Assembly: GCA_964430735.1 (NCBI GenBank) | Contig: CAYSFB010000008.1 | Location: 12,870-76,869 of the forward strand | Direction: 5' to 3' | Origin: an uncultured Planctomycetia bacterium | GTDB lineage: Bacteria; Omnitrophota; Gorgyraeia; 2-02-FULL-51-18; JAGOUK01 | Length of the DNA stretch: 64,000 nucleotides | Shown: positions 2,383-32,773 of the stretch, piece after piece | How positions within the stretch are numbered: position 1 is the first letter of the stretch | How the letters are laid out: each line of letters starts with the position of its first letter | Notes under the pieces: model-generated | The model's database searches: none | The model's input: the letters and a program-made list of their open reading frames with translations, nothing else | What the model was told of the DNA's origin: nothing | Program-made: the position numbers and the translations under genes

Positions 2383-2933
2383 TTTTTCTCGCGTCGCAGT
2401 CTCCGCGCAGAAGCTTTTTGCTCAAAGCGGCCGGCCTCCGCTTCGCCGTCGTCGCTTCCGCCCACGAAGAAATCATCCACGAACAACTCTCACCCGAAGA
2501 TAATGCGCTCTGGAACGCGCTGCTCAAATGCTCACGCGCCCGTCTCCGCCGCGGCGTCCGCTCCGGCGTTGTCATCGGCGCCGACACGCTCATCGACTTC
2601 AAGGGAAAAGTGGTCATCAAGCCCCGCCACCGCGCCGATGCTGAGCGGATGCTCAAGGGCTTTGCCGGCCGCACCCACACCGTCATCACCGCTGTCGCGG
2701 TGAAAAATCTTGCCACCGGCCGCTTCCGGACCTTCACCGTCAAATCCCGCGTGACGTTCAAAAAACTCTCGTTGAAGACAATCCGCGAATACCTCGACAC
2801 GGGCGAGTACGCTGATAAGGCCGGCGCGTACGGTTATCAGGAAAAAGGCAGGGCGTTGGTTCAGCGGGTCAAAGGATCCCAAACCAACGTCATCGGCCTC
2901 CCCATGGAGCAGCTCAAACGCAGATTAAAATAA
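2379..2933 (+). CDS. maf: Maf-family nucleoside triphosphate pyrophosphatase (septum formation protein Maf)
   Basis: 'MIFLASQSPRRSFLLKAAGLRF...GADTLIDFKGKVVIKPRHRADAERML...GRTHTVITAVAV...DKAGAYGYQEKGRALVQRVKGSQTNVIGLPMEQL' matches the Maf family signature along the whole length. Confidence 0.85.
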   Translation: MIFLASQSPRRSFLLKAAGLRFAVVASAHEEIIHEQLSPEDNALWNALLKCSRARLRRGVRSGVVIGADTLIDFKGKVVIKPRHRADAERMLKGFAGRTHTVITAVAVKNLATGRFRTFTVKSRVTFKKLSLKTIREYLDTGEYADKAGAYGYQEKGRALVQRVKGSQTNVIGLPMEQLKRRLK

Positions 2934-2986
2934 ATAGGGACACGTACTATTTAATTTAAATAAATAGTACGTGTCCCTATTTATTT
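2928..2986. terminator. Perfect 26-nt inverted repeat with a 7-nt loop, lying between convergent maf and pepF. Likely a bidirectional intrinsic terminator and copy 1 of a repeated palindromic element.
   Basis: AAATAAATAGGGACACGTACTATTTA-atttaaa-TAAATAGTACGTGTCCCTATTTATTT, A-rich on the 5' side and T-rich on the 3' side. It sits between the maf stop (2931-2933) and the pepF stop (2981-2983, minus strand). The core TAGGGACACGTACTATTTA recurs at 31751 and 32708/32751. Confidence 0.6.
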
Positions 2987-4780
2987 GGAGAGGGATTCGG
3001 CTTCTTGGACGAGGGCGTCGAGGAGTTTGAGGCCGGAGTTCCAGAATTCGGGGTCTTCGAGGTTGAGGCCCATGCCGGCGGCGAGTTCTTCGGGCTTTTT
3101 GGAGCCGCCGAGCGCGAGCATGTCGAGGTACTTCGGTACGAACGCGGCCCCCGTTTCCTTGTACTTCTGATAGAGCGCCAGCACGAAGAGCTGCGCGAAC
3201 GAATACGCGTAGCAGTAGAACGGCGTGTGGACAAAATGCGGGATGTATTTCCAGCCGTGCCGGTAATTTTCGGTCAGAATGACACTTTTTCCATAAAGCT
3301 CTGAGTTCGCCTCGATCCAGAACCCGTTCAGTGCCTCTTCCGCCAGCTCTCCGTCCTTCATCCCGCCCAAATGCGCCTTGAGCTCGAAGTCCGTCATCGC
3401 GATCTGCCGGAACACCGTCGCAAAATTGTCGTCGATCTTGCCGCAGAGGAGCGCGAGCCGTTCCTTGGGGTCCTTCACTTCGCCCAAGATCCGGTCGAAG
3501 ATGAGCATTTCGCCGAAGACGGAGGCCGTTTCGGCCATCGTGAGCGGCGCGTCGGATTCGAGGATGCCGACTTTGCGTCCCGCGAGGTATTGGTGCAGGC
3601 CGTGGCCGAGTTCGTGCGCGACGGTGAGCACGTCGCGGAGGTGGCCGGTGTAGTTCACGAGGATATACGGGTGCAGGTCCGGCGTCGTCTGGCAGCAGAA
3701 GCCGCCGCCTTGTTTGCCGGGGCGCACTTCCGCGTCGATCCAGCGCTTGTCGAAGAATTGCTCGACGATCTTCGCCGCCTCCGGCGAAAAGTCCCGGTAA
3801 CCGGCGAGCACGATCCGCTTGCACTCGTCGAACGAGACGCCGCTTTCGCGCGCGGAGAGCGACGCGTAGCGGTCGTAGTCATACAGGGGATCGAGGCCGA
3901 GGAGTTTGCCCTTGAGTTTGTAGTAGCGCTGGGCGATCGGATACGCGGCTTTGACGCTCTTGATCAGGTTCTCGATCACCGGGAGCCGCGTTTCGTTGGC
4001 GAGGTTGCGGCCGTCGGCCGGGTGCGTGTAACCGCGCAGCTTCATCGACGAGCGGTGGTCGGCCAGGATCATGTTGTAAATGTAGGTGAGCAGGTGCGAA
4101 TTGGCCTTGAGACCCTCGGCGAGCGACTCGGACCCGGCTTTGCGGACCGCACGGTCGGGGGAGTGTAAGAGCGCGAGGACTTCCGTCTCCGTTTTCTGGA
4201 CGCGCTTGCCGCCTTCTTCTATATAGAACGGGATCTTGTTGACCGTTTCGTCGAAGAGGCGCGAAAAAGCGCTGGAGCCCGTGTTGTCCTTGATCGACAG
4301 GATTTTTTCTTCGGGTTCCGAGAGCGTGTGCGGCGCGTATTTGCGCATGTCTTCGAGGTAATGCCGGTCGGCGGCCAGTTCCGGACGCGTGACGATCGCA
4401 CGGACCGCGGCTTCGGGCGCCTTGCACCAAAGAATGCCCCAGAACAGCAAGTGATTGTGGATGTTGGTCAGCCGATCCTGGATCTTTTGCAAAAAAGCAC
4501 CGCGTTTGGCGTCGTCGGTTTGCTCAGCGAAGGACAGATGCGCGAAAACGGCGACCTTGGTCTCGGGATGGATGAGCGCCTTGTAGTCCTTGAGGAGCGC
4601 GGCGGTGTCGAACGGCGTGCCGGCCGCCGCAAAAGCTTCGAGCGCGGGCTTCCAAGCCTTTTCGAACGCTTGGGCGAGCGCTTCGGCGCGGTCGAGATCG
4701 GCTGCGAGCTTGGGATCGTCCGCCGAGGCGTAAAGGTCGGCCAGGTTCCAGCGGATGCCGGAGGCGTAATTTTTATCCAT
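2981..4780 (-). CDS. pepF: Oligoendopeptidase F (M3B family zinc metallopeptidase)
   Basis: 599 aa with the HExxH zinc site 'VAHELGHGLHQYLAG' and M3B-type N- and C-terminal regions ('MDKNYASGIRWNLADLYAS...', '...GGSKKPEELAAGMGLNLEDPEFW'). Confidence 0.85.
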   Translation of the reverse strand: MDKNYASGIRWNLADLYASADDPKLAADLDRAEALAQAFEKAWKPALEAFAAAGTPFDTAALLKDYKALIHPETKVAVFAHLSFAEQTDDAKRGAFLQKIQDRLTNIHNHLLFWGILWCKAPEAAVRAIVTRPELAADRHYLEDMRKYAPHTLSEPEEKILSIKDNTGSSAFSRLFDETVNKIPFYIEEGGKRVQKTETEVLALLHSPDRAVRKAGSESLAEGLKANSHLLTYIYNMILADHRSSMKLRGYTHPADGRNLANETRLPVIENLIKSVKAAYPIAQRYYKLKGKLLGLDPLYDYDRYASLSARESGVSFDECKRIVLAGYRDFSPEAAKIVEQFFDKRWIDAEVRPGKQGGGFCCQTTPDLHPYILVNYTGHLRDVLTVAHELGHGLHQYLAGRKVGILESDAPLTMAETASVFGEMLIFDRILGEVKDPKERLALLCGKIDDNFATVFRQIAMTDFELKAHLGGMKDGELAEEALNGFWIEANSELYGKSVILTENYRHGWKYIPHFVHTPFYCYAYSFAQLFVLALYQKYKETGAAFVPKYLDMLALGGSKKPEELAAGMGLNLEDPEFWNSGLKLLDALVQEAESLSK

Positions 4781-4802
4781 AGAACAATTATATCATAGCC
4801 GC

Positions 4803-4850
4803 TTGACAATGTACTCATTATGAGTACAATTGTACTCATAATGAGTACAA
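4803..4850 (+). promoter_or_regulatory. Near-consensus sigma-70-type promoter (TTGACA-N16-TACAAT) overlapped by two tandem 17-nt palindromic operators, upstream of the MNT-HEPN pair
   Basis: TTGACA at 4803-4808 and TACAAT at 4825-4830. The operators are GTACTCATTATGAGTAC (4811-4827) and GTACTCATAATGAGTAC (4832-4848), each a perfect palindrome. pepF diverges on the minus strand. Confidence 0.55.
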
Positions 4851-5449
4851 AAGCCGAGAATCTTCAATTGTCCGCGTTATTTGGAAAGACCCGACGGAGG
4901 GTTTTGGCCGCTCTGTGCGCTTCGGACGCCGAGCCGCAATTTTTGCGCGGGATCGCGCGGGTATCCGGGGTGAGCGCGGGAACGGTCCAGCGCGAGCTCA
5001 TATCGCTGGTAGGCTCAGGTATCGTGATCCGTGAAGCGCAAGGCCGGCAGATCCTGTATCGGATCAATCCCAATCTGTCTTTTGCGGCGGAGCTAAAGTC
5101 GATTTTTTATAAGACGACCGGTATCCCGGATGCGTTGAGGCGGGCGCTGGAGCCGATCCGGCATAAAATCAAAAACGCTTTTATCTACGGTTCCTATGCC
5201 GCCGGATCCGCCAGGCCCGGCAGCGATGTGGATGTGGCGGTCATCGGTTCTGCGTCCGTCGCCGAAGTGGTCGCCGTGTTCGGGCCCGTTCAGCTGGACT
5301 TGGGACGCGAGATCAATCCGACCGTTTTTTCCGCCGCTGAATTCAAGAAAGGAACCGCTTCCGGAAACCCGTTCCTTGCCCGGGTTTGGAAAGGTCCGAA
5401 GATCTTTTTGATAGGGGGACCGAATGAGTCTGGAGCAATGGCGGAGTAA
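4841..5449 (+). CDS. Nucleotidyltransferase-domain protein with an N-terminal wHTH (MNT-type antitoxin-like; MntA/AbiEi-like)
   Basis: 'LRGIARVSGVSAGTVQRELISLVGSGIV' is a wHTH; 'IYGSYAAGSARPGSDVDVAVI' is the minimal nucleotidyltransferase GS...DxD motif. Start chosen at ATG 4841, after the operators. The track ORF begins at 4820 inside the operator palindrome. Confidence 0.65.
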   Translation: MSTKAENLQLSALFGKTRRRVLAALCASDAEPQFLRGIARVSGVSAGTVQRELISLVGSGIVIREAQGRQILYRINPNLSFAAELKSIFYKTTGIPDALRRALEPIRHKIKNAFIYGSYAAGSARPGSDVDVAVIGSASVAEVVAVFGPVQLDLGREINPTVFSAAEFKKGTASGNPFLARVWKGPKIFLIGGPNESGAMAE

Positions 5450-5870
5450 CGGCTGGATCCTTCCGCATCGCGCTGAAGATTCGGAATTAAGATCATTGTT
5501 AGAGGTGATTGAGCGGGATCTGCGGCAATGCCGCGTGAAGGGCATTGTGCCTGACTGGGCGTTAAGTATCGCGTATAATGCGGCATTGCAAACGGCCCGG
5601 CTGGCTTTGTTCGCGGCGGGTTACCGGATCTCCGGAGGCGAGGCACACCACTTCCGAGTGATACAAAGTCTGTCGTTTACGATCGCGGCGGAACCGGGCG
5701 TGGTCGCCCAGCTGGATCTTTTTAGGAAAAAGCGTAATTTTTGTGATTATGAGGCCGCCGGATCGGTGACCCTGACCGAAGTGAAGGCTGTCATTCAACT
5801 GGCTGAAGCGCTGAGTTTGCGAACCAAAGATTTTTTAAAACAACAACGGCCTTCTTTATTTAAAAAGTGA
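5424..5870 (+). CDS. HEPN-like domain protein, the probable toxin partner of the upstream nucleotidyltransferase
   Basis: 148 aa, alpha-helical, containing 'LFRKKRNFCDYEA' (an R-N-x3-Y variant of the HEPN Rx4-6H motif). It overlaps the upstream gene by 26 nt, as is typical of MNT-HEPN pairs. Confidence 0.5.
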   Translation: MSLEQWRSNGWILPHRAEDSELRSLLEVIERDLRQCRVKGIVPDWALSIAYNAALQTARLALFAAGYRISGGEAHHFRVIQSLSFTIAAEPGVVAQLDLFRKKRNFCDYEAAGSVTLTEVKAVIQLAEALSLRTKDFLKQQRPSLFKK

Positions 5871-5877
5871 TCCACAT

Positions 5878-10305: not shown

Positions 10306-10375
10306 TTGGACTAAGGTTTGATTAAACGCGCTTAACTTGGGGGTGGGGAACTATCGCCTGTTCAACGGATATGCT

Positions 10376-11990
10376 ATGCCCGGCTTATTAAATAATCTAA
10401 TAAGACTAATTTCATTAGTTTTGGTGGCCGCGTTCGGCCTTCAGGAGGTCGCTTGGGCTGTGCCTGCTCCGGCCCCGGTTGCGCTGTCCGTTTCGCTTGC
10501 CGAGATCGTCCGGAATCCGGCGCTGTTGCCGATCCCGGAGGAGGTGATGACGGTTGAGTCTCAGATCGCCGGAACCAACGGCAAACTGATCGTGCTCGTC
10601 CGTGACGCGCACACGAACTTCGACGCGCAGATGAACCTCGCCAAGGCGCTCGAGTTTTGGATGGACAGGATGCCGCTGGACCTGGTGCTTTCGGAAGGCG
10701 CTTCGGGCGACGTGTCGGTCGACGATGCGGCCGCGCGCTCGGGGCTCGCGCCGGACGACCTCCAGCGCGCCGCGCGGCGGATGGTGTGGGACGGCCAACT
10801 CACCGGACATGAATACTGGAATCTGCTGTCTCCCAAAAAGTTCTCGATCGTCGGCGTGGAAGATCCCGGGCTTTATGGCTCGGGTCTGAAGACATTTGGG
10901 GAGCTGGCCGACACCCGGCATCGGATATCGAAGGATCTGACGTCCGCGTCCCGCGCGATCAATAAGCTCAAGACCCGCCTCTATCCCCAAGCATTGACCG
11001 AGTATGAAGCATCTATTGCTGCTGCCGACGGACAACCGGACGTTTTGAAGCGATCGGAAAAACTCATGGCGCTCGCCGCCGCTTCCGGCGTGGACGCGTC
11101 GGCAGAACGCTATTCCAATCTGGCCCTTCTGCGCCGCCTCGCCGAAGCCGAAAAGACCATCCGTTTTGACCGGTTGAACCAGGAATTTGCGCAATTGTCC
11201 GGAGTCGCCGGAGGAGAGTCGGAGAGCGGTTTGGAAAAAATGCCCGCACAGCCGGCCGGCCTTCTGTCGCGGATTGAAACGCTGCTGGATGCGGCCGACC
11301 GCAAGGGCTTGTCGCGCGCCAATGCTCCGGAATTGGCGTCCTATGCCGGTTATCTGCGCTTGTTGGGATCGCTGGATCACGCGGCTCTTGCGGATGAGTT
11401 GGATGCTTTGGAGCGGGAAGTGTACGCCAAGCTGCTCCCGGACGCGACGCTCATGACGCTGCGGGAACTGGATCTGTATGTCGCCCGTACGACGGACGGT
11501 GTTTCGGTCCAACTCGACCGTTCCGGTTACGACCGCTGGGCGCGGGTGCGAAAAGAAGCGCCGACCGTCTCCTGGCAGGCATTCCTCAACGATCTTTTGA
11601 TCGCGAACGGTTGCGCCGAAGACTTGATTCCGTATCGCGAAGAATTGGAGGGGGCCGCCGGTCCGATCGACGAATTTTATCAGAACGCTTCGGACCGCGA
11701 CCGCGCCTTCGCGGACAACGCCGAACGCGCGATGGAGTCGGGCGGCGCATCTGCCGCGGTCCTCGTCGCCGGTGGATACCACACCCTGAACCTGATCGAC
11801 CTTCTCGCGGCCGAAGGATTCTCGATCGTAGTCATGACGCCCCGCATTACAATTTCCACCGACCGTGATCGCTACGAAAAGATTGTTCTCGCCTCTGAGT
11901 CTGCTTTTATGCCGGCCCTCTCCCGGACGGCCGAAGCATCCGGTCGATTGACGCGGTACGCCCGCGGACAAACAGGACCTGCCGCCAAAC
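10376..11990 (+). other. Shared N-terminal domain of the giant-protein family (copy 1 of 3). It contains the His motifs 'QDAH' and 'GG[YF]HT' and is possibly Tiki/TraB/GumN-like.
   Basis: Alignable by eye to 37246..38830 and 50523..52100. Conserved blocks: 'GTNGKLIVLVRDAHTNFDAQMNLAKALE', 'LVLSEGASGDVSVD', 'AGGYHT...L...GFSIVVMTP' and 'T.D.D.YE'. Confidence 0.6.
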
Positions 11991-23900: not shown

Positions 23901-26900
23901 ACTTCCTGGAGCAGAGCACCGCTCCCGCTGTCTCCGGCGCGCGATTGGCGAAGCGTACCGATGTCCGGCGCAAAGTAAAACCTGTTGATCGCGATAATCG
24001 CGGACCTGAGTTAAAAGCGGCGCCGGACCCGCTGGATATCATCTTTGCTGATCAGCTGATCCGGGAGTCTGACGCGCGTCTTTTGGCGGCGTTGGCGGCG
24101 GGGGAGCCGCAATCCTTTGTCGTGCCGGTTGACCGATCGGCCATCCGGCGGTTGCACGACCGATATCGTCAATCCCGGACGGCAGAGGAGCGTGAAGCTG
24201 CCGAACAGCTGCTGGTGGATTCGCAGATCCGCTGGATCGTCCAAATTGCCCGTAAATGGGACCGCATCAATCAGAGCCGTGTGCACAACTCGGAAGTCGG
24301 ACTCTCGGACATGGTGAGCTTGGGTATTCGTAAAGCGCGGGAGTCGCTCGATCGGTATGAGCCGGATAAGGGTGCGTTGAGCACGTGGATTACGCTGCCG
24401 GTCGACGGAGCGATCAGAAATCGGGTCTATGAAGGCGCCCGCCACCGGAGACGAGCCGGCAATATCGACTTGATCGGCTCCGAGATTGCCGCTCTTCCTG
24501 ATCTGACTTCCGATCAGAAGAAAGCCGTGCGGTCGGCGATTGCCGGAATGGAGGAAAAGGATCGGGAGATCGCGATCCTGTTCTTCGGCCTGATCGGAGA
24601 CAAAGAGACCAGCAACGAAATCGCCGACCGATACGAAGGGTTCTTGTCCAAGGAAGAGATTGAATCCCGGGTTGAGATGATTCTGAAGCGGATTTCGGCT
24701 CTGAATGCCTCGAACCCCGCAGAGACGGATCGAACCGTGCCAACTCCGGAAGAGAACGCTCCCGCATCCTGGCAGAATGACTCGCTCGCGACCATCCGGA
24801 TGATGCATCTGGCGTTGCGGGATCCGGAGACCGTGAGCTCCTGGGAGGCATTGTCTCAAAGGGATTTGTCGATTCTGCGCACCTACTACGAGAGCGGCGC
24901 GGAAGCTCGTCCGACAATGGAGCAACTTGCTTCTGAGTACAAGATCAGCAGGGCCAGGGTGGGGCAGGTCATTCAAGGAGCCGTTCGACGGCTTCGGAAT
25001 GAGCAGATGCGGGCCTGGAAGCATCTGCGGGAGGCGACGGGACTATCGCATGATCGGATACGCGCGGCATATGACCGGGCGGTTGATGTCGAGCGTCAGG
25101 AGGACGGTATCCGCAATGGACACCCCACCCCGACTCCCCGGGAGTTTGAAATGGAGCTGCGTCAGATCCCGGGCGTCCGGGCGATCGGCCCATTGACCGC
25201 GGAGCTGGCCAGGGCCCATTACAACCTGGCGCACCCGGCGACTCCGCTGAAGTTCTTCGGAGAAACCGAAGAATCCACGCGGTTGAGCGGATCCGCATCC
25301 GCCGAGGATCGGATTCTCGCCTACGTGCAATCCGCCGGCGGAATCGCATCCTGGAAGGAAATCGCCAAACATTTGGGTGTGAAGCAATCCGAGGCGCGGA
25401 CATATTTGACCCCGGAGCGGCTCGGGCAGATTCAATCGGAATCAAGATACGGAGTCGATGCGACGGTTCAAAGGCAGCGTTTGGTCCCCATCATCCTGGA
25501 TGCCCGGGACGCTGAGAGGGCCCGCCGAATCATAAGGGCGATGGAAGGAACCGGCAAGGAGCGAAGCTTCCGATTTGGAATGGCCACCTATCCTGAGATC
25601 GCCGCTGCGATGAAGATCCGTCTGTCCGGAAGCCGGCCCCCCCGGACCCGGATCTTCCGGCGCATCAATGCCGAGCAGCTCCTTGCCGATCTCAACAGCA
25701 ATAGAAGAATATTGAATCGGACGGGCCTGCCGTTCCGCCCTCTGCTTCAGATCATTCCGGCAGACGATCGGAACGCGGATTTGCGTGTCGTTGCGCGTGA
25801 GTTGCGCGGCGGTGATCCGGCCTCCGCCATCGGGATCGCCGAACGCGTCGGACGGTCTGCGAAGAGCGTTCATGCATCCGTCGAGCGTTTGCTGTTGGAC
25901 CACACAAGCGCCCACCGGCACCTCTATAACCTGATCGTCACAGGGCAGCCGATGATGCGAATGCCGGACGATAATAAAATATTTCGCTCTCAAAGTCAGA
26001 TTTTAAGGGCGGTTGAAGAATTGGGCGGTGTCGCCAACGCCCGGCAGATTTGGGATTACCTTCGGAACCGATACGGAGTAAAAATCAACCGATCGACGGT
26101 TGAGGATTATGCGTTCCGTCAGATGGATTGGGACGGGATCAACCGGCATCGGATGCAGGAGGGCAAGTTTGCACTCCGCGTTGTCGGTGCGAACCTGGAT
26201 GGATCCATGGCCCGCAGGTCGTTCGGCGATCGTCCCGGTTATGAGGGATTGGACCCGCTGCTGGTGAGCGCGGAACGGGATTACAGAGATCGATTTAAGG
26301 AATCAGACGACGGACGCACCGATTTCAGGTACCGGGTGTTGCCGGCGATTCATGGCATCCTCAAGCATTCCCCATCCGAGCAACCGATCGAAGTCCGATT
26401 CGGCCGCGTCAGCGATTTGTTGATCGACGCCTGCGCGACATGGTCTCAGCTCAACCCGGGACTTACCCGGGCGGAATTTTTTGAAACGGTCACTCTTCGA
26501 GCCATCCTGTTAACTTCCATTAAGACCGATGTTGATTCTGATTCGGATTGGGTCGGCCGGTTTGCCCTGACACTCGAGAAGGTGATTCACACCAACGGCC
26601 CCTTGGCGCCATCCGAATATGCCCCCTGGCTCAAGCCCGCAAGTTCCGCATCGCCGAGCCCCCGCGCTACCGATCGGAATGGTGCCCGCCTGTCAGAGAA
26701 TGCGGCCGGATCGGCCGGACAGATAGACTGGCGGGAGCAGGCGCGATCGCTGCTTGAACCGGATCCCGATAAGCGGTCTTCCGCCTCACTTGCGCTCGCA
26801 CGGGTGCTGATGCTGGATATCCGCAAACGCGTGGATGAGGGGATGGATCGGAAAGAATTCGGCTGGAACGATCCCGGCCGGATCGCTCCGGCTGTTGCGC

Positions 26901-28789
26901 CGCAGATTCCCGGTATCGTGGACCGGCTGGAGCAGTTGTTCGCCGGAGAGCTGGTGCCGGACATCGCGTCCTATGCCCGGGAGCGGCCCGCATCATCCGA
27001 GGTCACGGGTGATTCGTATGATCCGAGAAAGGGCCTGGCTAATTACCGGGCGGCGGCTTTCTTTGCCCTGACCGAGCTCGCGGGGCCGACCCGTTTGGTG
27101 ATGGATATCAACGAGCGGCGGTATATCGCAGCGCCGGTAAAAGAAGAGCTGCTTCGCCGGATGGAGTCCTATCGCCAGTCGCTGGATGCGTCGGGCGCTG
27201 AGCGGTTGGATCGGATCTACCGGGAATTCCGCCAAAGCGGACTGTATGAATTCGGGCCCTTCTCGATAGAAGCGGAGCTGAATCTTCTCGAGTGGACGAT
27301 GCTTTATTGGCGGTGGATCCATGAGCCGAGTGGTCTTGAGCGTCTGTCGCCCGGTCAAATCAAGCTCGCCGACCGGATGAAAAACCAGGTTTACGAGTAT
27401 GTGCGAAAAGGAATCCTTTACACGTTTCTGACCGATTCAGCCGGCAGAGAACTCGAATCGGAAGTCGCTTCACGCATCGGTGAATCCAAATCACGATTCG
27501 GCGCCCGGCTCGCGCAGAAAGGCTCGGGTCCTGAGCGGCACGACTTCAAGAATCTCAAGGCAGGAGCCGAGATCGTCATTCCGAACAAGAGCCGTCTGCG
27601 GATCCGGATTCTCGAGTTGGGTTTGAATTGGGCGGAGATCGAAGTAACCGGAGCGGATGGACGGCAGCCCGCCCGGATGAAGCTTTTTATTCCAAAGCAG
27701 TCTGAGTCCAAGATGGTGATCGGAGACGCGATCAAGGCCAGCGCGGTGGAAGTGGATTCGCAAAAAGGAAAAATGCACCTTCGCGTCGAAGTCCCATCCG
27801 GGATGGAGCGCAAGCCGTACCGCGAGGAAGGCGCCCGTCTGGCGTTTCCGGAGCCGGCGACGGAGCAGGATCTCGCGGGTTGGATGGGCGAAGCGGATCT
27901 GCAGGAGATGGGGCGGATGGCCCAATTGCTTCAGAAGGAGCGTTTGAAGGGGGCGTATGCCGTGACGATTCTGGGGCTGGCGGCGCTGCTGCGCATCGGT
28001 CCCGGCGGCGCGTCGGTGAGCACGGCCGAGCACAGGGCCGCCATTTCGCTCGCGACGTCCGTCGCCAAGTATGATTCGGGCCGCGCTCCGGCGGGCATGC
28101 CGCAGCTGTCGCGCACGCTGCGCGCCGCGTACCGGCAAGTTCAGAATCCGATCGGCCCGCGTTACATCGAGCACGACCTCGCGCGTTACAAAGTGAAGAA
28201 CGACGCACACGGGGTCATCTTCCGATCGGCCGTCGAATCCCTGTCGCATGTGCTCAAGCGGTTGCCGGAAGTCGAAGTGCGCTTCACATGGAACGGCGCG
28301 CCGATCGCCGACCCGACCCTGGATCTTCCGGACCCTCAAGCCCGCAAGCTCGTCGAGGACGCGCGCAAGATTTTGTCGGCGTGGGACGGTTCCGGAGCCA
28401 AAACGCTGATGGACCTGCCGTCCGGCCGCCGCGGGGTCCGCGATTTGACTCCACGGGCGTTGGAGCGTTTCGCGGAGACCGATAAAGCCTTCGTACTCAC
28501 CGCATCCGGATTGAACAACGGTGTCCGCGACCCGGTCGCGACGCTGCTGGTGCAGGTGCGGCTGGCCGATCCCGCTCCGATCGTGGAAGGGGAGGCGGTG
28601 GTGGGCCTGCTCCGTTACCTGACCCGCACCGACATATCCGCAGAAGACGCCGAGTTGCTCAGGGCCGGGGACGCGGAAGCCGTTCTGGCCCGGAAACAAA
28701 AATTCTCGATCAAGCCGATGGCAGCGCGCCTGGCCGAATCGGTCGCGCATCTCATCCGCTCGCTCGCCGCAGCCGCCGTTGCGGCCTAA
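10376..28789 (+). CDS. Giant multidomain protein 1 (about 6,100 aa). It has an N-terminal signal peptide and a paralogue-shared domain, followed by embedded PRTase-, protein-kinase-, methyltransferase-, RmlD-, APH- and sigma-70-like modules.
   Basis: Uninterrupted 18.4 kb ORF. The track places the start at TTG 10337. ATG 10376 is preferred because it gives 'MPGLLNNLIRLISLVLVAAFGLQEVAWA', which is signal-peptide-like and conserved in the paralogues. The N-terminal ~540 aa aligns with the other two giant ORFs (motifs 'LVRDAHTN' and 'VLVAGGYHTLNLIDLLAAEGFSIV'). Internal domain motifs are listed as separate features. Confidence 0.85.
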   Translation: MPGLLNNLIRLISLVLVAAFGLQEVAWAVPAPAPVALSVSLAEIVRNPALLPIPEEVMTVESQIAGTNGKLIVLVRDAHTNFDAQMNLAKALEFWMDRMPLDLVLSEGASGDVSVDDAAARSGLAPDDLQRAARRMVWDGQLTGHEYWNLLSPKKFSIVGVEDPGLYGSGLKTFGELADTRHRISKDLTSASRAINKLKTRLYPQALTEYEASIAAADGQPDVLKRSEKLMALAAASGVDASAERYSNLALLRRLAEAEKTIRFDRLNQEFAQLSGVAGGESESGLEKMPAQPAGLLSRIETLLDAADRKGLSRANAPELASYAGYLRLLGSLDHAALADELDALEREVYAKLLPDATLMTLRELDLYVARTTDGVSVQLDRSGYDRWARVRKEAPTVSWQAFLNDLLIANGCAEDLIPYREELEGAAGPIDEFYQNASDRDRAFADNAERAMESGGASAAVLVAGGYHTLNLIDLLAAEGFSIVVMTPRITISTDRDRYEKIVLASESAFMPALSRTAEASGRLTRYARGQTGPAAKLLSVLLSIEPDGARLAGTDAAVAHTIRIQSSGDLESAIVRRFAVYKMGSADEAERFARELAQTVRTRYAAELARDRGRIVIVTPPRNVAGSPITAVARSVAAQLGLPYVETFEEPLEPGPTYIGVSSARVREKLARQTGLILRPELNLAGKKILILDDMITTGTTIRATQSKLEERFGTEDFMVAAMVRLESSDPADEKNVSRYLADRKDWDAVVEILNDPRTRIGKSVVEMFTALNPDMRIGLLAQLTDVAVKKLLLSTMLFDHGTRSVDWMQTLWVRIAPVAWSSSAHPALEDGYWSEEFQSWLDRAAASEADPVLLEQMILLLEFVHRRESMTRLVTIADRFKGSFVGTQATDALNRRVEPVSEDDVYDVFEHFRYPKGLQSGLARPDGERTISMKFLGEPRQELNASFAGSGRDGHVSRIVTLTPDPDGTVMAKPKERIIFDASWMKLRPDIANGAVKGIFLKSAGDRSGDVTARIVVDDRMLDVFPARAGRDGIIEWRIEGLSEALRRKSATNQFFFRNWQFQRRPEAVAGARLATGEAGAEAAEVAAFAFTGIDEEKIYSDPDALEAIAPFRIRVLKNGQVHFGSRDRGRLEKSVMAHTSIPEGEWLTVTPEYRQQLPAGLDAQWILRLNRKSGAPLYYRFVNTGTFLKKLDLSAGGFLGSFSRIGRYKDRSLPPFPQDEFSVTVLKGGNANFASWSDTQGSGDAVIRRLRIRLGDEYEGLPVRVRKFFVNSQLSEWLLLVLKPATGTAPETGDSIRGRMLVYRFVRPGRIEQIKRHPSGDEQWSAFPGLDQAAAQFAVTASPGDGARLAKSGNADDGIEFAEKWLRKYAFLSRLRMSDVEWRKEEGEKLAREAAKAISEVHVMIRHRLAYDAQGVELKPVVSLRGLTLEPSVDYWTAWASAASDHGEELGVSDGWKQAVLGAITVLSCYQDNHAHLKHQGGESRRNYYRSVLALDSARLVLDPASRGVRIDLAHAFFHNKEYVQAEKLLEDLLLSDKTNRTALVLTGYVRLEMAARALSRMERQLEQEKYMDALESFARTLRLLDAAQEPLRKATDRRTLNGPRGIKSLARAMSGMALVAMRRAEAYRILSDRPEVRGVAQPRYRSVVHSISALEHALSALNVNGAGPDALGHSFGIYRDIVVRLARGLDASALDRIDPARYQELRGLMVRMKELLNSAPNDDVPARKRKSARGSHSVQTTIADSISVLSAVCVAIQTSLDRRDEIKEKLNKAVLRVLHDQHPEDPASFEARVAEDFAAAIPVAQVSEREAWIAVARSHLESLHTTREDIALAGWHLLSDSGDRTLESLSEISGIEASVVAERFRSPFLKEVGLALEEESSPPDADVKVSPKKYTQDMAIYNLGDIKSFLASDVWIRPEPDAADVHTIPSAKHIERMFRQLRPWLSFRSPIDWDHLSAMRKRMWEQIDQFFELAPSALKKNAEDIDTLRMNLTHLRRGTDDKPGYWVRAKELMDRLKRRQQTIEDQIRAGIGKIDSDLTKLRARNNVLRIGYLDELIKGLELRRARLNGLLDPQDPGYLLPEHFDEQMQAAQADRELVQPLEAVEASLTRVRDLEWEVDRQVHQAAEAAAAADLPGTSAASAVVRRLRTEMRQVERMFQKYALRADSEKKMSQIEGRLGRIQQEAVRIRQALERRSSIRERISRIRQQADAGRPLLQPLTEWCAKIARQTDRMDDMLRDADLAGDRREDGEAYSGRLQLVLEEVDRVEKEVDEMLARLGQKSANAMKASLVGVELMAALLWQWSEQAFPGTTAHARRFTTASWKLREKIEKLKSQSDRGWIDPGLREEIDMAFLMCFLEYVRAMNEEHDLLIDKAKQQILQLTKQLKNRIATGPMKSEEIGLFTLTLTRVHYLDLPSDFELVLYSDKEQRQRLSEEGHKAFIKKLKAMPVHDNPFLQQFEDRWQYHGPEGFEESFAYRDLLHGLWMTVVFYMDGYESASGSTKPVHFAHLFPEAVRLKQLNVIRRRMIGADADRVGDPTILFPVNSPEQLRLIMQVRSSTDRFLENLFPALDEDLGPADPDRMQEARHVLDRILTQTQENRGARLARDGLTLSADAQGLDENRFAAAWVDPASVELPILLASEAGSWKALLSAAPRSQTDSGDDDRRRELWMPGDAPVPGADGIPLKHLTFSSKALLLWEWKSRYPELFAGNAPQIFKQLGFDREGVIEFADPITRYRYRMPAVPTARGGMNLVFLAAAGHQVRDAAGASTEEHGRDAAVLVPIRPNQGWRSRAVAEVYDALHPYRINEVQVPHDRIPQLIQLIPASNAPFGVDAVAIEYLDPGGFMESVRDMQTRLTQQSLERKLGIRMRFSLVLGAARALQMMHEAGVIHRDFKPENVHWDGDDVRIVDFSNAFVYRAPSPLAIPGAQSRLQTMRLIEPLEKQKGMLGGTPRILAIDGTVTPSFVEGSAFLEATKRFAHDPSQDKFAFGLFLAQAFGMHATGAMDSRELDLRLELLQSDLERAGEQVKWPADLSAVGLIGLIRRLLDPALKAQDDLDWKEIIDTLQGFAGIYGTSRFVPTEFTAEKLPGDRYSQGYRGGGTLALDPPGLPSDPGSGARLANGKGLDPSEDDLRDMYTAAAFGPDYQIHRTLRAGPIDTGIFKNSYDRIFSNMNFGPEQNFSSTLTARVKLQKQSDPSRPWMWLDVGPGAGNALREGIELIEEKSLNGHYRALGADIVDHRSRSGRSAPAAGDYGFIPLPGGVENLEVPDGAEPDLITAVHVLMYADDPLQALTRLYNVLRPGGELLVTVNAIHVGSAPSALPMMNSWEIGNWFSGYAKDLNSKGIASAELIGDVLRIRKLSADRVRLSISADESFEPYRNQEGIRIIRYRPADPSQPGVLEVVGPGARLAQADSARNAMASVARYGFVRRGLEAKKIFDLQLASTGPVDSDTAGRITGRLLELIKQSALSAGDKKQFRRFSDIVESLEYHSIDPVSASPSDYLAALHDPAKKILYLPQIWIDELTSRTPADAFDEALVREILYPAQRVAVLGGSGKVGRRIAAELRQVYPDVSAASRSGGFGSQKLDVTDDADLAGWIDRMRPDVIVYAAGIADPDRAQRDPEAAQLLNARIPKRLRSLTRARLIYLSTDNVFDGQSAKPYHPKARPRPLKGMAYGQSKLDGERVTLDGLRHRNAVLRLGLVVAEEDVEKIIQQIQGSMSGSAQAPTVDGKRKRYPVWVDDVALAVRDLVANPKKGIYQLNGEKPITRFDMARIAAVELDPESGDQHVLAGTTATTAAIQAPRPAHVRMENNLMKPRPIEDQIVQTTKLAAHNGPGALARLDRAVRLRDGKLLREAMGELDALGIRWTLAGPVGALEDWPEAPRVVDTGDAAAVSRALLDHLVTPDTFREDLARAVESILMEVPLDRVRVMAAVVDERADEYWVNPEMGVRTLRIVSTDFVYRGIGMRYWMSVSQNGIPHGFGPFGPYRSMLLPLISRMPDGSSAPAEEVLQGGSMSTVVRVHESDRSTVIRKSAPAGWHADKLRDEARYMRMLEATGIFPKVYDVQSSDGVRKNPLFRRLLENPAAAACLHQLIKLAHQIPWLRPLAGMLERWAAQPPVPKGTTVWMEDLKGYEQLTEVSRWAHLGFKRPEIKSSSIDDRTIYRSDWDIALDIYRSLIPIFYGVQSAQTPPDFLRKYHFEKLETRWAEARARSRQLDLVMSAPYIKDPDRRYGQLLPNLPLAAQAAEAIASYDPEALLPPHLTREHGDLHFGNILIPPADYFRRKRIESFRLIDPKWLPNGNDPLYDLAKLMHNKYGWYDLALNHHDSFYFGMSVPESGGPAEFHWNFDDESYAGDRMRDEFGAVQDFSQQFEEWMRLPDDDPRVRDMERFGLNWRTRLIFTHASLLAGLLNFHVLPEDPQSKISVIYWQAATQFDRAILHLIGREEEYRHQTGQRRLPDDLYTPLRTMVLLQRVYQQSDSEEVKAAAEHQYVAAINDLRHFLEQSTAPAVSGARLAKRTDVRRKVKPVDRDNRGPELKAAPDPLDIIFADQLIRESDARLLAALAAGEPQSFVVPVDRSAIRRLHDRYRQSRTAEEREAAEQLLVDSQIRWIVQIARKWDRINQSRVHNSEVGLSDMVSLGIRKARESLDRYEPDKGALSTWITLPVDGAIRNRVYEGARHRRRAGNIDLIGSEIAALPDLTSDQKKAVRSAIAGMEEKDREIAILFFGLIGDKETSNEIADRYEGFLSKEEIESRVEMILKRISALNASNPAETDRTVPTPEENAPASWQNDSLATIRMMHLALRDPETVSSWEALSQRDLSILRTYYESGAEARPTMEQLASEYKISRARVGQVIQGAVRRLRNEQMRAWKHLREATGLSHDRIRAAYDRAVDVERQEDGIRNGHPTPTPREFEMELRQIPGVRAIGPLTAELARAHYNLAHPATPLKFFGETEESTRLSGSASAEDRILAYVQSAGGIASWKEIAKHLGVKQSEARTYLTPERLGQIQSESRYGVDATVQRQRLVPIILDARDAERARRIIRAMEGTGKERSFRFGMATYPEIAAAMKIRLSGSRPPRTRIFRRINAEQLLADLNSNRRILNRTGLPFRPLLQIIPADDRNADLRVVARELRGGDPASAIGIAERVGRSAKSVHASVERLLLDHTSAHRHLYNLIVTGQPMMRMPDDNKIFRSQSQILRAVEELGGVANARQIWDYLRNRYGVKINRSTVEDYAFRQMDWDGINRHRMQEGKFALRVVGANLDGSMARRSFGDRPGYEGLDPLLVSAERDYRDRFKESDDGRTDFRYRVLPAIHGILKHSPSEQPIEVRFGRVSDLLIDACATWSQLNPGLTRAEFFETVTLRAILLTSIKTDVDSDSDWVGRFALTLEKVIHTNGPLAPSEYAPWLKPASSASPSPRATDRNGARLSENAAGSAGQIDWREQARSLLEPDPDKRSSASLALARVLMLDIRKRVDEGMDRKEFGWNDPGRIAPAVAPQIPGIVDRLEQLFAGELVPDIASYARERPASSEVTGDSYDPRKGLANYRAAAFFALTELAGPTRLVMDINERRYIAAPVKEELLRRMESYRQSLDASGAERLDRIYREFRQSGLYEFGPFSIEAELNLLEWTMLYWRWIHEPSGLERLSPGQIKLADRMKNQVYEYVRKGILYTFLTDSAGRELESEVASRIGESKSRFGARLAQKGSGPERHDFKNLKAGAEIVIPNKSRLRIRILELGLNWAEIEVTGADGRQPARMKLFIPKQSESKMVIGDAIKASAVEVDSQKGKMHLRVEVPSGMERKPYREEGARLAFPEPATEQDLAGWMGEADLQEMGRMAQLLQKERLKGAYAVTILGLAALLRIGPGGASVSTAEHRAAISLATSVAKYDSGRAPAGMPQLSRTLRAAYRQVQNPIGPRYIEHDLARYKVKNDAHGVIFRSAVESLSHVLKRLPEVEVRFTWNGAPIADPTLDLPDPQARKLVEDARKILSAWDGSGAKTLMDLPSGRRGVRDLTPRALERFAETDKAFVLTASGLNNGVRDPVATLLVQVRLADPAPIVEGEAVVGLLRYLTRTDISAEDAELLRAGDAEAVLARKQKFSIKPMAARLAESVAHLIRSLAAAAVAA
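12215..12530 (+). other. Phosphoribosyltransferase (PRTase type I)-like module inside giant protein 1
   Basis: 'GKKILILDDMITTGTTIRA' at 12446-12484 is the classic PRPP-binding motif, preceded by 'IVIVTPPRNVAGSPITAVARSVAAQLGLPY'. Confidence 0.6.
18600..19350 (+). other. Eukaryotic-like Ser/Thr protein-kinase-like module inside giant protein 1
   Basis: The catalytic-loop motif 'VIHRDFKPENV' (HRDxKPxN) at 19064-19087 and 'IVDFSNAF' (DFG-like) at 19121-19129. Confidence 0.55.
19990..20340 (+). other. Class I SAM-dependent methyltransferase-like module inside giant protein 1
   Basis: Motif I 'WLDVGPGAGNAL' at 20003-20029 and 'LRPGGELLVTV' at 20291-20317 (MTase type-11-like). The module is bounded by GARLA at 19742 and 20612. 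Confidence 0.55.
21035..21520 (+). other. RmlD-like (dTDP-4-dehydrorhamnose reductase / NAD(P)-epimerase) module inside giant protein 1
   Basis: 'RVAVLGGSGKVGRRIAAEL', then 'LDVTDDADLAGWIDRMRPDVIVYAAGIADPDRAQRDPEAAQLLNA', then 'LIYLSTDNVFDGQSAKPYHPKARPRPLKGMAYGQSKLDGE'. This matches the RmlD STDYVFDG...P...YG.SKL.GE signature. Confidence 0.6.
22420..23420 (+). other. Aminoglycoside-phosphotransferase (APH)/choline-kinase-like kinase-fold module inside giant protein 1
   Basis: 'HGDLHFGNILIP' (Brenner motif) at 23194-23217, 'FRLIDPKW...NDPLYDLAKLMHN' (Asp of the DFG equivalent), and an N-lobe-like 'GGSMSTVVRVHESDRSTVIRK'. Confidence 0.5.
24180..25010 (+). other. Sigma-70 region 2 / region 4-like segment inside giant protein 1
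   Basis: 'AAEQLLVDSQIRWIVQIARKWDR...EVGLSDMVSLGIRKARESLDRYEPDKGALSTWITLPVDGAIRNRV' parallels sigma-70 region 2.1-2.4 ('[37 protein letters not shown]'). Two region-4-like HTH segments follow: 'EKDREIAILFFGLIGDKETSNEIADRYEGFLSKEEIESRVEMILKRI' and 'DLSILRTYYESGAEARPTMEQLASEYKISRARVGQVIQGAVRRLR'. Confidence 0.5.
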
Positions 28790-28831: not shown

Positions 28832-29320
28832 ATGCGCCGCTTCCAGCTTTTTGCTCTCACATTGATCCTGTCGATTGCCGCAACCGCGTCCGCCTCGGAC
28901 GAAGGCTCCAGCGGCGCCATCGAAACCTACTACCCCAACGGCGCGGTCAAATCCCGGGCGATCTACAAAGACGGCCGTCTGGAAGGACCCTATGAACTTT
29001 TTTCAAAAGACGGCCGGCTTCAGGAATTCCGGACGTACCGGAACGACAAGCTGAACGGTCCGGGCCGCCGGTATTTTGCCGATGGCCGGATTGCCGAAGA
29101 AGTGAGCTATGCCGACGGATTTTTGGACGGTCCCTACAAACAGTACGATTCCAACGGCAAGCGGCTGATCGAGGCCGTTTATCAGCGCGGCAAACCCGTG
29201 ACGCCGCTGCGCGTGTATGGCGCCAACGAGGCGTTGATCAGCGCAGAACATTATACGATCGGCGAAAAAGCTCCCAAGCCCGCGGCCCGTCCCGCCCCCA
29301 AAAAGCAAAAGCGTCCCTAA
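28832..29320 (+). CDS. Secreted MORN-variant repeat protein (YwqK-like)
   Basis: Signal peptide 'MRRFQLFALTLILSIAATASA', then repeated 'YxNGxxxxxxxYKDGRLEGPYELF / YRNDKLNGPGRRYFADGRI / YADGFLDGPYKQY' units typical of MORN_2/YwqK repeats. Confidence 0.55.
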   Translation: MRRFQLFALTLILSIAATASASDEGSSGAIETYYPNGAVKSRAIYKDGRLEGPYELFSKDGRLQEFRTYRNDKLNGPGRRYFADGRIAEEVSYADGFLDGPYKQYDSNGKRLIEAVYQRGKPVTPLRVYGANEALISAEHYTIGEKAPKPAARPAPKKQKRP

Positions 29321-29333
29321 ATATCCAGTTACG

Positions 29334-29339
29334 CTATAA
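29334..29339 (+). promoter_or_regulatory. Consensus -10 hexamer TATAAT in the AT-rich intergenic region upstream of the permease gene
   Basis: 'ttacgcTATAATactttttt' lies 49 nt upstream of ATG 29388. No clear -35 was found. Confidence 0.3.
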
Positions 29340-29387
29340 TACTTTTTTCCCAAAAAGTTAGTAAAAACAAAAAGTAAGATACATCCC

Positions 29388-31121: not shown

Positions 31122-31122
31122 T

Positions 31123-31749
31123 ATGGTCGAAGTCAAAGTCGAAGTCAAAAAAGCCCACCACGCGCTCGTCCATCTTCGCACGCATATTTTCCGCGGCCTC
31201 ATCGCCGTCATCCCGCTCGTCATCTCGTTTTTCGTCGTCCAATTCCTCTACATCATGGTCGACCGCCGCGTCGCGCGGATGATCGAAGGATGGACCGGGG
31301 TCGCGATTCCGGGATTGGGGATCCTGCTGGTGCTGGCGATTCTGTACCTGGTCGGCCTGATCGCGTCCAACCTCGTCGGCAAGCAGCTCTTCGGGCTGAT
31401 CGAAAAGATCAGCGAGCGCATTCCGCTCGTGCGCACGACCTACCAGGTGGGCAAGCAGATTTCGCAGTCGCTGTCGCACGAGGACAAACAGCTCTTCAAG
31501 CGCGTGGTGATGGTGAAATACCTCAATGCCGGCGCCTGGACTATCGGGTTCGTGACGGGAACGCTCACCGACGCGAAGGAGCCGGGTGTGACGTTTCTCA
31601 AGGTGTTCGTCCCGACCCCTCCCAATCCCACGTCCGGCACGATGATCATCGTCCGGGAAGAGGACGCGCGCGACCCGGGCTGGACGGTCGAAGAGGGCTT
31701 GAAGACCGTCATTTCCGGCGGCATCATCGGCCCCGCCCAACTCAAATAA
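31123..31749 (+). CDS. DUF502-like membrane protein
   Basis: Two N-terminal TM helices followed by 'IPLVRTTYQVGKQISQSL...VVMVKYLNAGAWTIGFVTG', which resembles the DUF502 family. The start is 1 nt after the permease stop. Confidence 0.5.
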   Translation: MVEVKVEVKKAHHALVHLRTHIFRGLIAVIPLVISFFVVQFLYIMVDRRVARMIEGWTGVAIPGLGILLVLAILYLVGLIASNLVGKQLFGLIEKISERIPLVRTTYQVGKQISQSLSHEDKQLFKRVVMVKYLNAGAWTIGFVTGTLTDAKEPGVTFLKVFVPTPPNPTSGTMIIVREEDARDPGWTVEEGLKTVISGGIIGPAQLK

Positions 31750-31750
31750 T

Positions 31751-31773
31751 TAAATAGGGACACGTACTATTTA
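31751..31773. repeat. Single copy of the AT-rich element TAAATAGGGACACGTACTATTTA, overlapping the start codon of the FMN reductase gene
   Basis: Identical 22-23-nt core to the arms at 2928-2953 and 32708-32730. No inverted partner was found within 100 nt. Confidence 0.6.
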
Positions 31774-32366
31774 TGCCCACGATGCCCGCACCCCGTATCC
31801 TCGCCTTCGCCGGCAGCGCCCGCAAGGAATCCTGGAACAAGAAGCTCGTCCGCGCCGCCGCTGAGGGCGCCCGGAAGGCCGGACTCGAAGTAACGGTGAT
31901 CGATCTGGCGGACTACCCGCTGCCGATCATGGACGAGGATTTGGAAGCGCGCGAGGGCTTGCCGGCCAACGCGAAGAAGCTCAAGGAGCTTTTTTTGGCC
32001 CACCAAGGCCTTCTCATCGCGTCGCCCGAGTACAACAGCTCCGTCACGGCGTTGCTTAAGAATACGATCGACTGGGTGTCGCGTCCGGTGCCGGGCGAGC
32101 CGCGCATGGCGTGCTTCGTAGGCAAGACGGCGGCGCTTGTGAGCGCGTCACCTGGTGCGCTCGGAGGACTCCGGGGACTGGTGCATTTGCGCGCCATCCT
32201 CGGCAACATCGAAGTGACCGTCCTGCCGCATCAATTCGCGCTGGTCAAGGCGCACGAAGCGTTCGGGCCGGAGGGGAAGCTGAAGAGCCCCGACCAGCAG
32301 ACCGCCGTCGAGGGCGTCGCCGCGGCGCTCGCGGCCATGCTCAAAAAATTACATCCTTCCGCTTGA
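31773..32366 (+). CDS. NADPH-dependent FMN reductase family protein (flavodoxin-like fold)
   Basis: 'RILAFAGSARKESWNKKLVRAAAE...LLIASPEYNSSVTALLKNTIDWVSRP...AALVSASPGALGGLRGLVHLRAILGNI' matches the FMN_red family layout. An alternative in-frame ATG lies at 31782. Confidence 0.75.
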   Translation: MPTMPAPRILAFAGSARKESWNKKLVRAAAEGARKAGLEVTVIDLADYPLPIMDEDLEAREGLPANAKKLKELFLAHQGLLIASPEYNSSVTALLKNTIDWVSRPVPGEPRMACFVGKTAALVSASPGALGGLRGLVHLRAILGNIEVTVLPHQFALVKAHEAFGPEGKLKSPDQQTAVEGVAAALAAMLKKLHPSA

Positions 32367-32441
32367 AGCCGTCCGTTCCATCGGTATAATCTAATCGAAG
32401 TATTTTGAATCAACGGTCCGCCGCCAATCGGGAGAATTCAA

Positions 32442-32693
32442 ATGCCTAAATGCGTCAAATGCGACGACAGCTTCAGCCGCGACGAGGGCGAGTACAACGA
32501 GGACAAGGAATTCGTGTGCGCGACCTGCGCGGACGAGCATGGCCTTCTGGACGACCCGGACGACGATGATGATGATTTGGACGACGATGAGTTGGATACG
32601 ACCGTGAAGGCGTGCCCCAGCTGCAAGGAAAAGTCCGAAGACTACGCCGAGTCCGGCATCTGCCCTGAGTGCGGCTTCGAAAAGGACGAATAA
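32442..32693 (+). CDS. Small acidic zinc-ribbon protein with two CxxC pairs
   Basis: 'MPKCVKCDD...CATCADEHG...DDPDDDDDDLDDDELD...CPSCKEKSEDYAESGICPECGFEKDE'. It is followed by a palindromic element and a canonical terminator. Confidence 0.45.
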   Translation: MPKCVKCDDSFSRDEGEYNEDKEFVCATCADEHGLLDDPDDDDDDLDDDELDTTVKACPSCKEKSEDYAESGICPECGFEKDE

Positions 32694-32707
32694 CCCGATA
32701 GAATTTA

Positions 32708-32773
32708 ATTAGGGACACGTACTATTTATTCAAGGACCGTCAGGTCCGAAGAATAAATAGTACGTGTCCCTAA
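32708..32773. repeat. Inverted-repeat pair of the AT-rich element. The arms are about 22 nt, separated by a 20-nt spacer that itself contains a short palindrome.
   Basis: TTAGGGACACGTACTATTTATTC-aaggaccgtcaggtccgaa-GAATAAATAGTACGTGTCCCTAA. The core is identical to the copies at 2928-2986 and 31751-31773. Confidence 0.65.

Follow-up and report, generated by a model that had tools for sequence, protein, structure and literature searches.

AT-rich inverted repeats in a probable Omnitrophota genome are most plausibly REP/REPIN-type repeats of a RAYT-like tyrosine transposase

A 64-kb stretch of DNA from an uncultured bacterium (contig CAYSFB010000008.1; this whole stretch is hereafter the window) carries five copies of a short AT-rich repeat at three intergenic sites. 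We consider it highly likely that these copies are short non-autonomous repeats of the repetitive extragenic palindrome (REP) or REPIN type, and that their cognate enzyme is P0004, a RAYT-like protein (RAYT, REP-associated tyrosine transposase) of the HUH-Y1 kind. Relatives of the window and loci of homologous transposases lie on short contigs, which are coded L001-L101, and proteins are coded P0001 and so on.

The repeat is defined by a 19-mer, TAGGGACACGTACTATTTA, whose exact copies lie at 2935-2953 (+), 2961-2979 (-), 31755-31773 (+), 32710-32728 (+) and 32754-32772 (-). Tolerating up to three mismatches gave no match beyond these five in the window, 100 dinucleotide shuffles of the window gave none at all, in line with a chance expectation of none, and the shorter core GGGACACGTAC with one mismatch tolerated returned the identical five sites. 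Decayed copies, sought in the window as 23 nt with up to seven mismatches, were not found. The full unit spans approximately 23-26 nt and reads (A/T)TAAATAGGGACACGTACTATTTA(A/T)T, with a box, GGGACAC..AC, that is conserved family-wide and sits between AT-rich arms; the unit itself, with its GGGACACGTAC box, is asymmetric and has no dyad. The 19-mer has a GC content of 37% and the 26-mer one of 27%, compared with 59% in the window as a whole, and the exact matches bear out the AT-rich element with five copies at three intergenic loci that a preliminary description of this DNA had reported. All copies are intergenic, contacting stop or start codons only, in a window of which a few per cent is non-coding.

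Two of the three sites are inverted doublets that give hairpins of 23-26 bp, and the third is a single unit. Doublet 1 (2928-2986) consists of a unit at 2928-2953 (+) and an inverted unit at 2961-2986 (-) with 7 nt between them, and a repeat finder extends its arms to 29 nt (2928-2956/2958-2986, complementarity 97%). Doublet 2 (32700-32780) consists of a unit at 32706-32731 (+) and an inverted unit at 32751-32776 (-) with outer arms AGAAT/ATTCT, the same 26-nt arms being returned by the repeat finder (32706-32731/32751-32776, complementarity 96%). DNA folding gave -25.6 kcal/mol (z = -12.5) for doublet 1 and -29.5 kcal/mol (z = -11.8) for doublet 2, and RNA folding of doublet 1 gave -40.5 and -37.8 kcal/mol. 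The single unit, AATTAAATAGGGACACGTACTATTTA (31748-31773, +; from the repeat finder and gene calls), forms on its own a weak 7-bp AT-rich stem, TAAATAG/CTATTTA (-2.5 kcal/mol, z = -1.2).

The repeat is tied to an enzyme by transposase genes that lie between inverted copies of it. Among 185,579 species-representative genomes, an exact scan for the 19-mer returned one Omnitrophota metagenome-assembled genome (contigs L001 and L002) and one Prolixibacteraceae match (L003); approximately four chance matches are expected for any 19-mer in 596 Gb, and the Prolixibacteraceae match was rejected as a chance hit within a 645-aa open reading frame (ORF). JGI metagenome contigs held no exact match to the 19-mer, and the single match in IMG/VR, within the ORF of a helix-turn-helix (HTH) protein of an AT-rich phage, was likewise put down to chance. 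On L001, two inverted copies bracket a 221-aa ORF that matches Pfam Y1_Tnp (E = 2.7e-11) and has the REP-associated tyrosine transposase as its best NCBIfam match, at 63 bits, i.e. below the cut-off of 80. Homologues of this protein form 3,119 clusters at E <= 1e-10. Three of them, full-length and closest to it, were examined on their contigs: P0001 (78% identical to the L001 protein; L009), P0003 (55%; L010) and P0004 (220 aa, 53%; L011, L012, L093 and L094). Each of their genes lies between inverted copies of AAATAGGGACACGTAC(T/C)ATTTA, and that of P0004 has the exact 19-mer on either side in all four of its contigs. At the 3' side, the copy touches or runs over the stop codon in L001, L009 and L011/L012, whereas in L010 it is found some 40 nt beyond it. 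Related transposases and the same motif are hereby linked in four genomes, in hosts of 40-59% GC. Twenty-one units from five genomes fall into a single alignment with the consensus AA-TAAATAGGGACACGTACTATTTAATTT, and the 19-nt core is 18-19/19 identical at all eight gene flanks of the GTAC clade, whose enzymes are 53-78% identical. The same core occurs in hosts of 40% and 59% GC, and its AT-richness goes with the pair of enzyme and repeat and not with the host.

The transposase gene occurs on one contig per sample, its order tatA-tatC-RAYT is common to L010 and L011, and htpG lies near it in L001 and L009; one contig per sample together with conserved synteny fits a resident single-copy gene, not a hopping insertion sequence (IS). 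The enzyme diverges faster than its neighbours, with 61% identity against 77% for TatC in one comparison and 78% against 93% for HSP90 in the other. L009, from a 40% GC genome, also contains a doublet of about 95 nt (5327-5420) that is laid out like doublet 2 of the window, with outer arms, core and apical mini-hairpin, and that folds at -44.2 kcal/mol (z = -15.5). A small gene of 108-109 aa was seen downstream of the transposase in L001 (4652-5258), where it is paired with a 94-aa ORF, and its orthologue upstream of the transposase in L009 (2616-2942); repeat copies lie at the borders, and this relocation suggests a repeat-mediated rearrangement.

Judged from its sequence and its predicted structure, P0004 belongs with the RAYT-like tyrosine transposases of the HUH-Y1 kind and, among these, with the TIRYT/TIRtron type. 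The Pfam Y1_Tnp model matches the cognate enzyme above its cut-off, and the HUH histidines H61 and H63 as well as R119-Y120 do not vary among 51 sequences. When PDB sequences were searched with a profile, the sole match was 4ER8, the structure of Escherichia coli TnpA-REP in complex with a REP hairpin, and the same entry was the best fold match (E = 4e-9, template modelling score 0.75 on the target) of the AlphaFold model of P0004, which has a predicted local distance difference test score of 93.5. The transposases of IS608, ISDra2 and IS200 followed as fold matches approximately four orders of magnitude behind. A further feature of the model is a helical extension of about 60-80 aa at the C-terminus, which has no Pfam match; when P0004, P0003, P0001 and P0074 were scanned against Pfam at E <= 1, Y1_Tnp alone was returned, with no Bac_DnaA_C, HTH_23 or HTH_28.

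P0004 is very probably encoded in the window's own genome, because the two share sequencing runs and a matching tetranucleotide signature. The contig of the window was found in the Logan assemblies SRR14271365, SRR14271366, SRR14271367 and SRR14271373, and the P0004 contigs come from three of these four runs (SRR14271365, SRR14271366 and SRR14271373). In tetranucleotide composition the window correlates with L093 at 0.974, compared with 0.978 for its own two halves and at most 0.845 for unrelated loci of similar GC. The P0004 gene lies downstream of tatC and adjoins another giant gene, and its contigs break off within the 3' repeat, 16 nt past the stop codon. Six Logan contigs in all end within a repeat copy (L007, L011, L012, L093, L094 and L095), as is expected if the repeat is multi-copy and assembly-breaking, which is an indirect hint of its abundance. 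As a separate observation, the P0004 gene (L093 10001-10663) is AT-shifted, with a GC content of 49.5% and 58% GC at third codon positions compared with 75-84% for tatC, tatA, fecR and the window genes, and L010 shows the same pattern; this suggests a foreign origin or weak codon selection despite the conserved synteny. The closest named homologues of the window's FMN reductase belong to Phycisphaerae (approximately 70% identity) and those of its PntB to Omnitrophota and Victivallales (75% each). Given the PntB matches, the giant genes and the transposase relatives labelled Omnitrophota, the host is probably a member of the Omnitrophota within the PVC (Planctomycetes-Verrucomicrobia-Chlamydiae) group.

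Orthologous regions, retrieved through homologues of the FMN reductase and PntB, show the same junctions with and without the repeat. Identity to the window's FMN reductase was 89% for L095, 84% for L096/L097 and 77% for L098/L099; L098/L099 and L100/L101 taken together are at 77-78%. At site 1, between maf and pepF, the only relatives compared (L100/L101) have a 27-nt spacer and no repeat where the window has doublet 1. At site 2, between the DUF502 gene and the FMN reductase gene, the window's single unit is present in L095 with one mismatch, while L096/L097 have a 53-nt spacer without a repeat and in L098/L099 the stop overlaps the start (ATGA), again with no repeat. At site 3, after the zinc-ribbon ORF, the left arm of doublet 2 is present in L095, whose contig end lies inside the element, and L096-L099 have other sequence in its place and no repeat. 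No repeat copy was found in 21 kb of L100. All three sites are thus empty in the more distant relatives and both checkable sites are filled in the closer relative L095, and the window copies therefore appear to be lineage-specific insertions, filled only in the near lineage of the window. No direct repeats or target-site duplications were seen in the sequence at the borders of either doublet, which fits, without proving, Y1-type chemistry. An assembly artefact was excluded, as independent assemblies place the copies identically. At the position of doublet 2, L096 (4090-4180) and L098/L099 (4940-5100) carry a different inverted-repeat element, ATTCTGCTGAAAAAGCCGCATCTGCGGCGTTGC ... GCATCTGCGGCTTTTTGAGCAGAAT, which may be another repeat family in the same intergenic niche.

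The mechanism that we propose draws on the E. coli TnpA-REP and IS200/IS605 systems (PMC8266576). Two units in opposite orientation make up each of the hairpin-forming doublets, or REPINs, at 2928-2986 and 32700-32780, and 31748-31773 is a singlet. By analogy with those enzymes, P0004 would recognise the unit on single-stranded DNA, with the GGGACAC..AC box as the likely recognition determinant, and would cleave and rejoin DNA via a 5'-phosphotyrosine intermediate. Units and doublets would in this way spread in trans to tolerated intergenic sites while the P0004 gene itself stays put.

Several points weigh against this assignment to a resident RAYT-like enzyme. No transposase gene was found in the window by tblastn with the L001 protein (best E = 3.9), and the link to the same genome is one of co-occurrence and composition and not of a closed assembly. 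Copies were counted in the window and on short contigs, and the comparison of empty with filled sites fits precise loss as well as insertion. The NCBIfam RAYT score is, at 63 vs 80 bits, under its cut-off, and the literature searched held no report of activity for any TIRYT-type enzyme. Furthermore, in contrast to the REPIN-RAYT systems of Pseudomonas and Enterobacteria, the unit lacks a GTAG tag, having ATAG, and its own palindrome is weak (7 AT-rich bp, z = -1.2), with arms that are modestly enriched family-wide.

A degenerate-pattern scan placed the repeat in a wider family, returning 80 metagenome loci with relatives 43-53% identical in hosts of 35-71% GC; the exact core of the window is absent from these 80 loci. 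Most of them have flanking inverted repeats with the box GGGGACAC(C/A)ATAC, GGGACAGCGAC and similar. In a family set of 81 loci with related transposases (L001, L009-L011 and most of L013-L092), GGGWSAS occurs up to 160 nt upstream of the gene in 63, with an inverted 3' copy as well in 52; most of these boxes read GGGGACAC, and 41 of the 81 loci have the start of the box 50-58 nt ahead of the ATG. In a neighbour-joining tree the four GGGACACGTAC-box enzymes are monophyletic, beside a GGGACAG(C/A)GAC clade, and box type therefore co-diverges with the enzyme. Self-complementary arms were assessed in 159 units, of which 12% have stems of at least 7 bp compared with 3.5% of swapped-arm controls. 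The single unit as a covarying REP hairpin was nonetheless rejected, given this modest enrichment of the arms and the insignificant fold of the window singlet.

A TTGAC box was also seen 34-37 nt before the ATG in 34/81 of the RAYT-like loci, exactly 35 nt in 24 of them; it stands directly behind the 5' repeat, and a hexamer resembling a -10 box lies about 7 nt ahead of the ATG (e.g. L016 590-670). Such spacing, as read from the sequence, implies that the transposase mRNAs would be leaderless, and autoregulation via the repeat is possible. More tentatively, and with considerable doubt on our part, the window element could be the tip of a very large cross-phylum RAYT-like clade with a rigid and undescribed architecture. 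That architecture would join a co-diverging GGGACAC-box repeat, a 5' repeat followed by TTGAC 35 nt before a leaderless ATG, and a 3' repeat usually at or over the stop codon, a combination for which our confidence is equally low. If it is true, the frozen 19-nt core would point to an unusually tight co-constraint between enzyme and DNA or to host-level selection, e.g. as bidirectional terminators.

An explanation at the RNA level, which the preliminary description had raised as transcript-stabilising hairpins, is unlikely as the primary role. It would make the hairpins terminators or 3' stabilisers under selection, their family likeness arising through convergence or duplication of a good terminator, and doublet 1 is the site that suits it best. 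This doublet forms the entire spacer between the convergent genes maf (2220-2933, +; Maf Pfam match) and pepF (2981-4780, -; Peptidase_M3 Pfam match), where the repeat at 2928-2986 overlaps and so provides the stop codons of both. It gives a 26-bp hairpin whichever strand is folded, passes a loose terminator scan on both strands (a 20-pair stem, then TTATTT) and has strong RNA folds, and REPs are known to influence termination and mRNA decay (PMC8266576). The other two sites did not pass the same loose scan. Doublet 2, a 23-bp stem with an apical mini-hairpin, lacks a T run and lies 3' of an 83-aa zinc-ribbon ORF (32442-32693) and just 5' of a canonical intrinsic terminator, AAACCCAGGTTTGACCTGGGTTT followed by a T run (32783-32814, +; hairpin 32783-32805), that is not part of the repeat, as the preliminary description had correctly separated it. 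This terminator is conserved in every relative whose contig reaches it, and is ancestral, because L096 and L098/L099 keep it without having the repeat; as a terminator, doublet 2 would be redundant. The singlet, between co-directional genes, has no significant structure, and Rfam at gathering thresholds matched no family anywhere in the window. The identical sequence also flanks the transposase in four genomes, and a pure terminator needs no conserved 19 nt across hosts of 40% and 59% GC. What survives of the RNA-level proposal is a secondary effect, in that doublet 1 may act as a secondary bidirectional terminator between maf and pepF.

Very unlikely, in our judgement, is that the units are operators of a transcription factor controlling a regulon, one of three identities that the preliminary description had listed without preferring any, this one as an operator for a genome-wide regulator in view of an ACGT core and dyad symmetry. 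Strong sequence conservation and the dyad symmetry of the doublets would suit an operator, as would the 5' copy of the transposase gene, which stands immediately before the TTGAC box 35 nt from the ATG and could serve in autoregulation. The window sites themselves are convergent 3' ends, a 23-nt stop-to-start spacer and a position downstream of a gene, none of them promoter-like, and they are absent from the orthologous junctions of otherwise syntenic relatives. The symmetry is moreover one of doublets, the unit being asymmetric. An operator role thus found no support.

Least likely of all, and barely credible, is that the doublets are miniature inverted-repeat transposable elements (MITEs) derived by deletion from an IS of the DDE type, for although they are short inverted-repeat elements of AT-rich composition foreign to the host, and the full-length relative has an IS-like layout of inverted repeat, gene and inverted repeat, the enclosed gene is an HUH-Y1 gene with a TnpA-REP-like fold and not a DDE transposase, neither doublet is bounded by target-site duplications, and the transposase has conserved synteny and one contig per sample. 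The REP half of the earlier REP/MITE-like label holds, with the repeat flanking a RAYT-like gene in four genomes and inserted in a lineage-specific manner, and the MITE half, if of DDE type, does not. The finding that the preliminary description had named as refuting, namely that the element belongs to the ends of a known IS or transposon, is half the case: it is a terminal repeat, yet that of a REPtron/TIRtron gene, and the repeats disperse without the gene.

Returning to the window as a carrier of REP/REPIN-type repeats, the singlet forms the whole 23-nt spacer from the DUF502 stop codon (31747-31749) to the annotated ATG of the FMN reductase gene (31773), the two genes being co-directional, and may take the place of the ribosome-binding region of the latter. 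The repeat contributes the A of this ATG in both the window and L095, and the overlap with the start codon that had been described hinges on this annotated start; a second in-frame ATG lies at 31782, and within the first part of the gene (31773-31784) 9 nt, ATGCCCACG, are missing from L095. The apical mini-hairpin in the spacer of doublet 2 (32734-32747, +), which had been described with a 5-nt loop, is present with a loop of 4 nt (GGACC-GTCA-GGTCC). Direct copies do bracket the FMN reductase and zinc-ribbon gene pair, as first noted, but this has no evident meaning beyond two independent intergenic insertions, and a composite element around the pair was rejected for want of any supporting feature. 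Elsewhere in the window, three giant ORFs at 10337-28789 (6150 aa), 37246-50370 (4374 aa) and 50421-63371 (4316 aa) take up approximately 70% of the sequence, with weak Pfam matches to methyltransferase, kinase and epimerase families. In L100/L101, pntB is directly followed by a MORN-repeat gene, and the 18-kb ORF is absent there.

The AT-rich palindromes of this 59% GC genome are thereby explained as the repeats of a domesticated tyrosine transposase, and their annotation as operators or as a new RNA is not warranted. To specialists in bacterial repeats the explanation is an ordinary one, and what is new is a REPIN/TIRtron-type family in a little-studied lineage, which extends systems of this type to a probable Omnitrophota host. 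Two features stand out, namely a core that has stayed frozen over deep divergence and an order of repeat, promoter and predicted leaderless ATG that is itself conserved. In practical terms the repeats fragment short-read assemblies of this genome, with several contigs ending inside them, and P0004 with its 23-nt unit offers a clean enzyme-substrate pair for testing TIRYT-type repeat mobilisation, since no experiment on the mobilisation of its repeats by a TIRYT enzyme was found in the literature searched.

Among known systems, the classical elements of the IS200/IS605 family (IS608 and ISDra2 TnpA) share with the window family the HUH-Y1 catalytic core, likely cleavage and joining of single-stranded DNA and the lack of target-site duplications. 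They differ in that the dispersed copies in the window are gene-less, that no tnpB lies next to the transposase gene and that this gene stays in conserved synteny. The ends are here inverted copies of one unit and not distinct subterminal hairpins of left and right ends, and the fold match is weaker than that to TnpA-REP.

The likeness to the REPIN-RAYT systems of Pseudomonas and Enterobacteria (Bertels and Rainey 2011, PMC3116915; Bertels et al. 2017, PMC5581495; Nunvar 2010, PMC2817692; for the biochemistry of TnpA-REP, PMC8266576) is closer. Both have a resident, apparently single-copy HUH-Y1 gene flanked by repeats, and short extragenic repeats that form hairpins as inverted doublets after genes or between convergent genes. 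In both, the copies within a genome are near-identical and the repeat type co-diverges with the enzyme, and 4ER8 is the nearest solved fold. Besides the missing tag and the weak palindrome weighed above, the window unit differs in being AT-rich (27-37% GC) and not GC-rich, the enzyme is approximately 55 aa longer and falls below the NCBIfam RAYT cut-off, and its copies were counted over 64 kb (five), the tens to hundreds typical of those systems being genome-wide numbers. Neither a recent survey of Omnitrophota genomes nor a literature search combining the terms made any mention of RAYTs, REPs or palindromic repeats in this group.

Closest of all are the TIRtrons, in which RAYT-like TIRYT genes are bounded by terminal inverted repeats in place of GTAG REPs; these repeats have the motif GGGGWSAS in common, keep a set distance from the gene and are also dispersed, in moderate abundance, as singles, dimers and clusters (Di Nocera, De Gregorio and Rocco 2013, PMC3733652). 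The window family likewise has a Y1 gene between inverted repeats at a fixed distance, the 5' box starting some 54 nt ahead of the ATG and the copy at the 3' side usually touching or covering the stop codon, and its dispersed copies in the window are one singlet and two dimers. The box resembles GGGGWSAS: most relatives have GGGGACAC, and the window has aGGGACAC, where AGGGACAC matches GGGGWSAS at 7/8 positions, with three G instead of four. TIRtrons correspond approximately to TnpA-Y1 subclass 2.1, for which HTH-like domains at the C-terminus and an absence of REP-like sequences near the genes were reported (Quentin et al. 2018, PMC6006769). Our family differs in that its enzymes have no detectable C-terminal HTH domain (last 80 aa), that the window unit has self-complementary AT arms and is in this respect partly REP-like, and that its PVC-group, probably Omnitrophota, host is not covered by the TIRtron and subclass 2.1 surveys. 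Because the unit has neither a GTAG tag nor a robust palindrome of its own, we file the window family not as a classical GTAG REP but as one of the TIRYT/REPIN kind.

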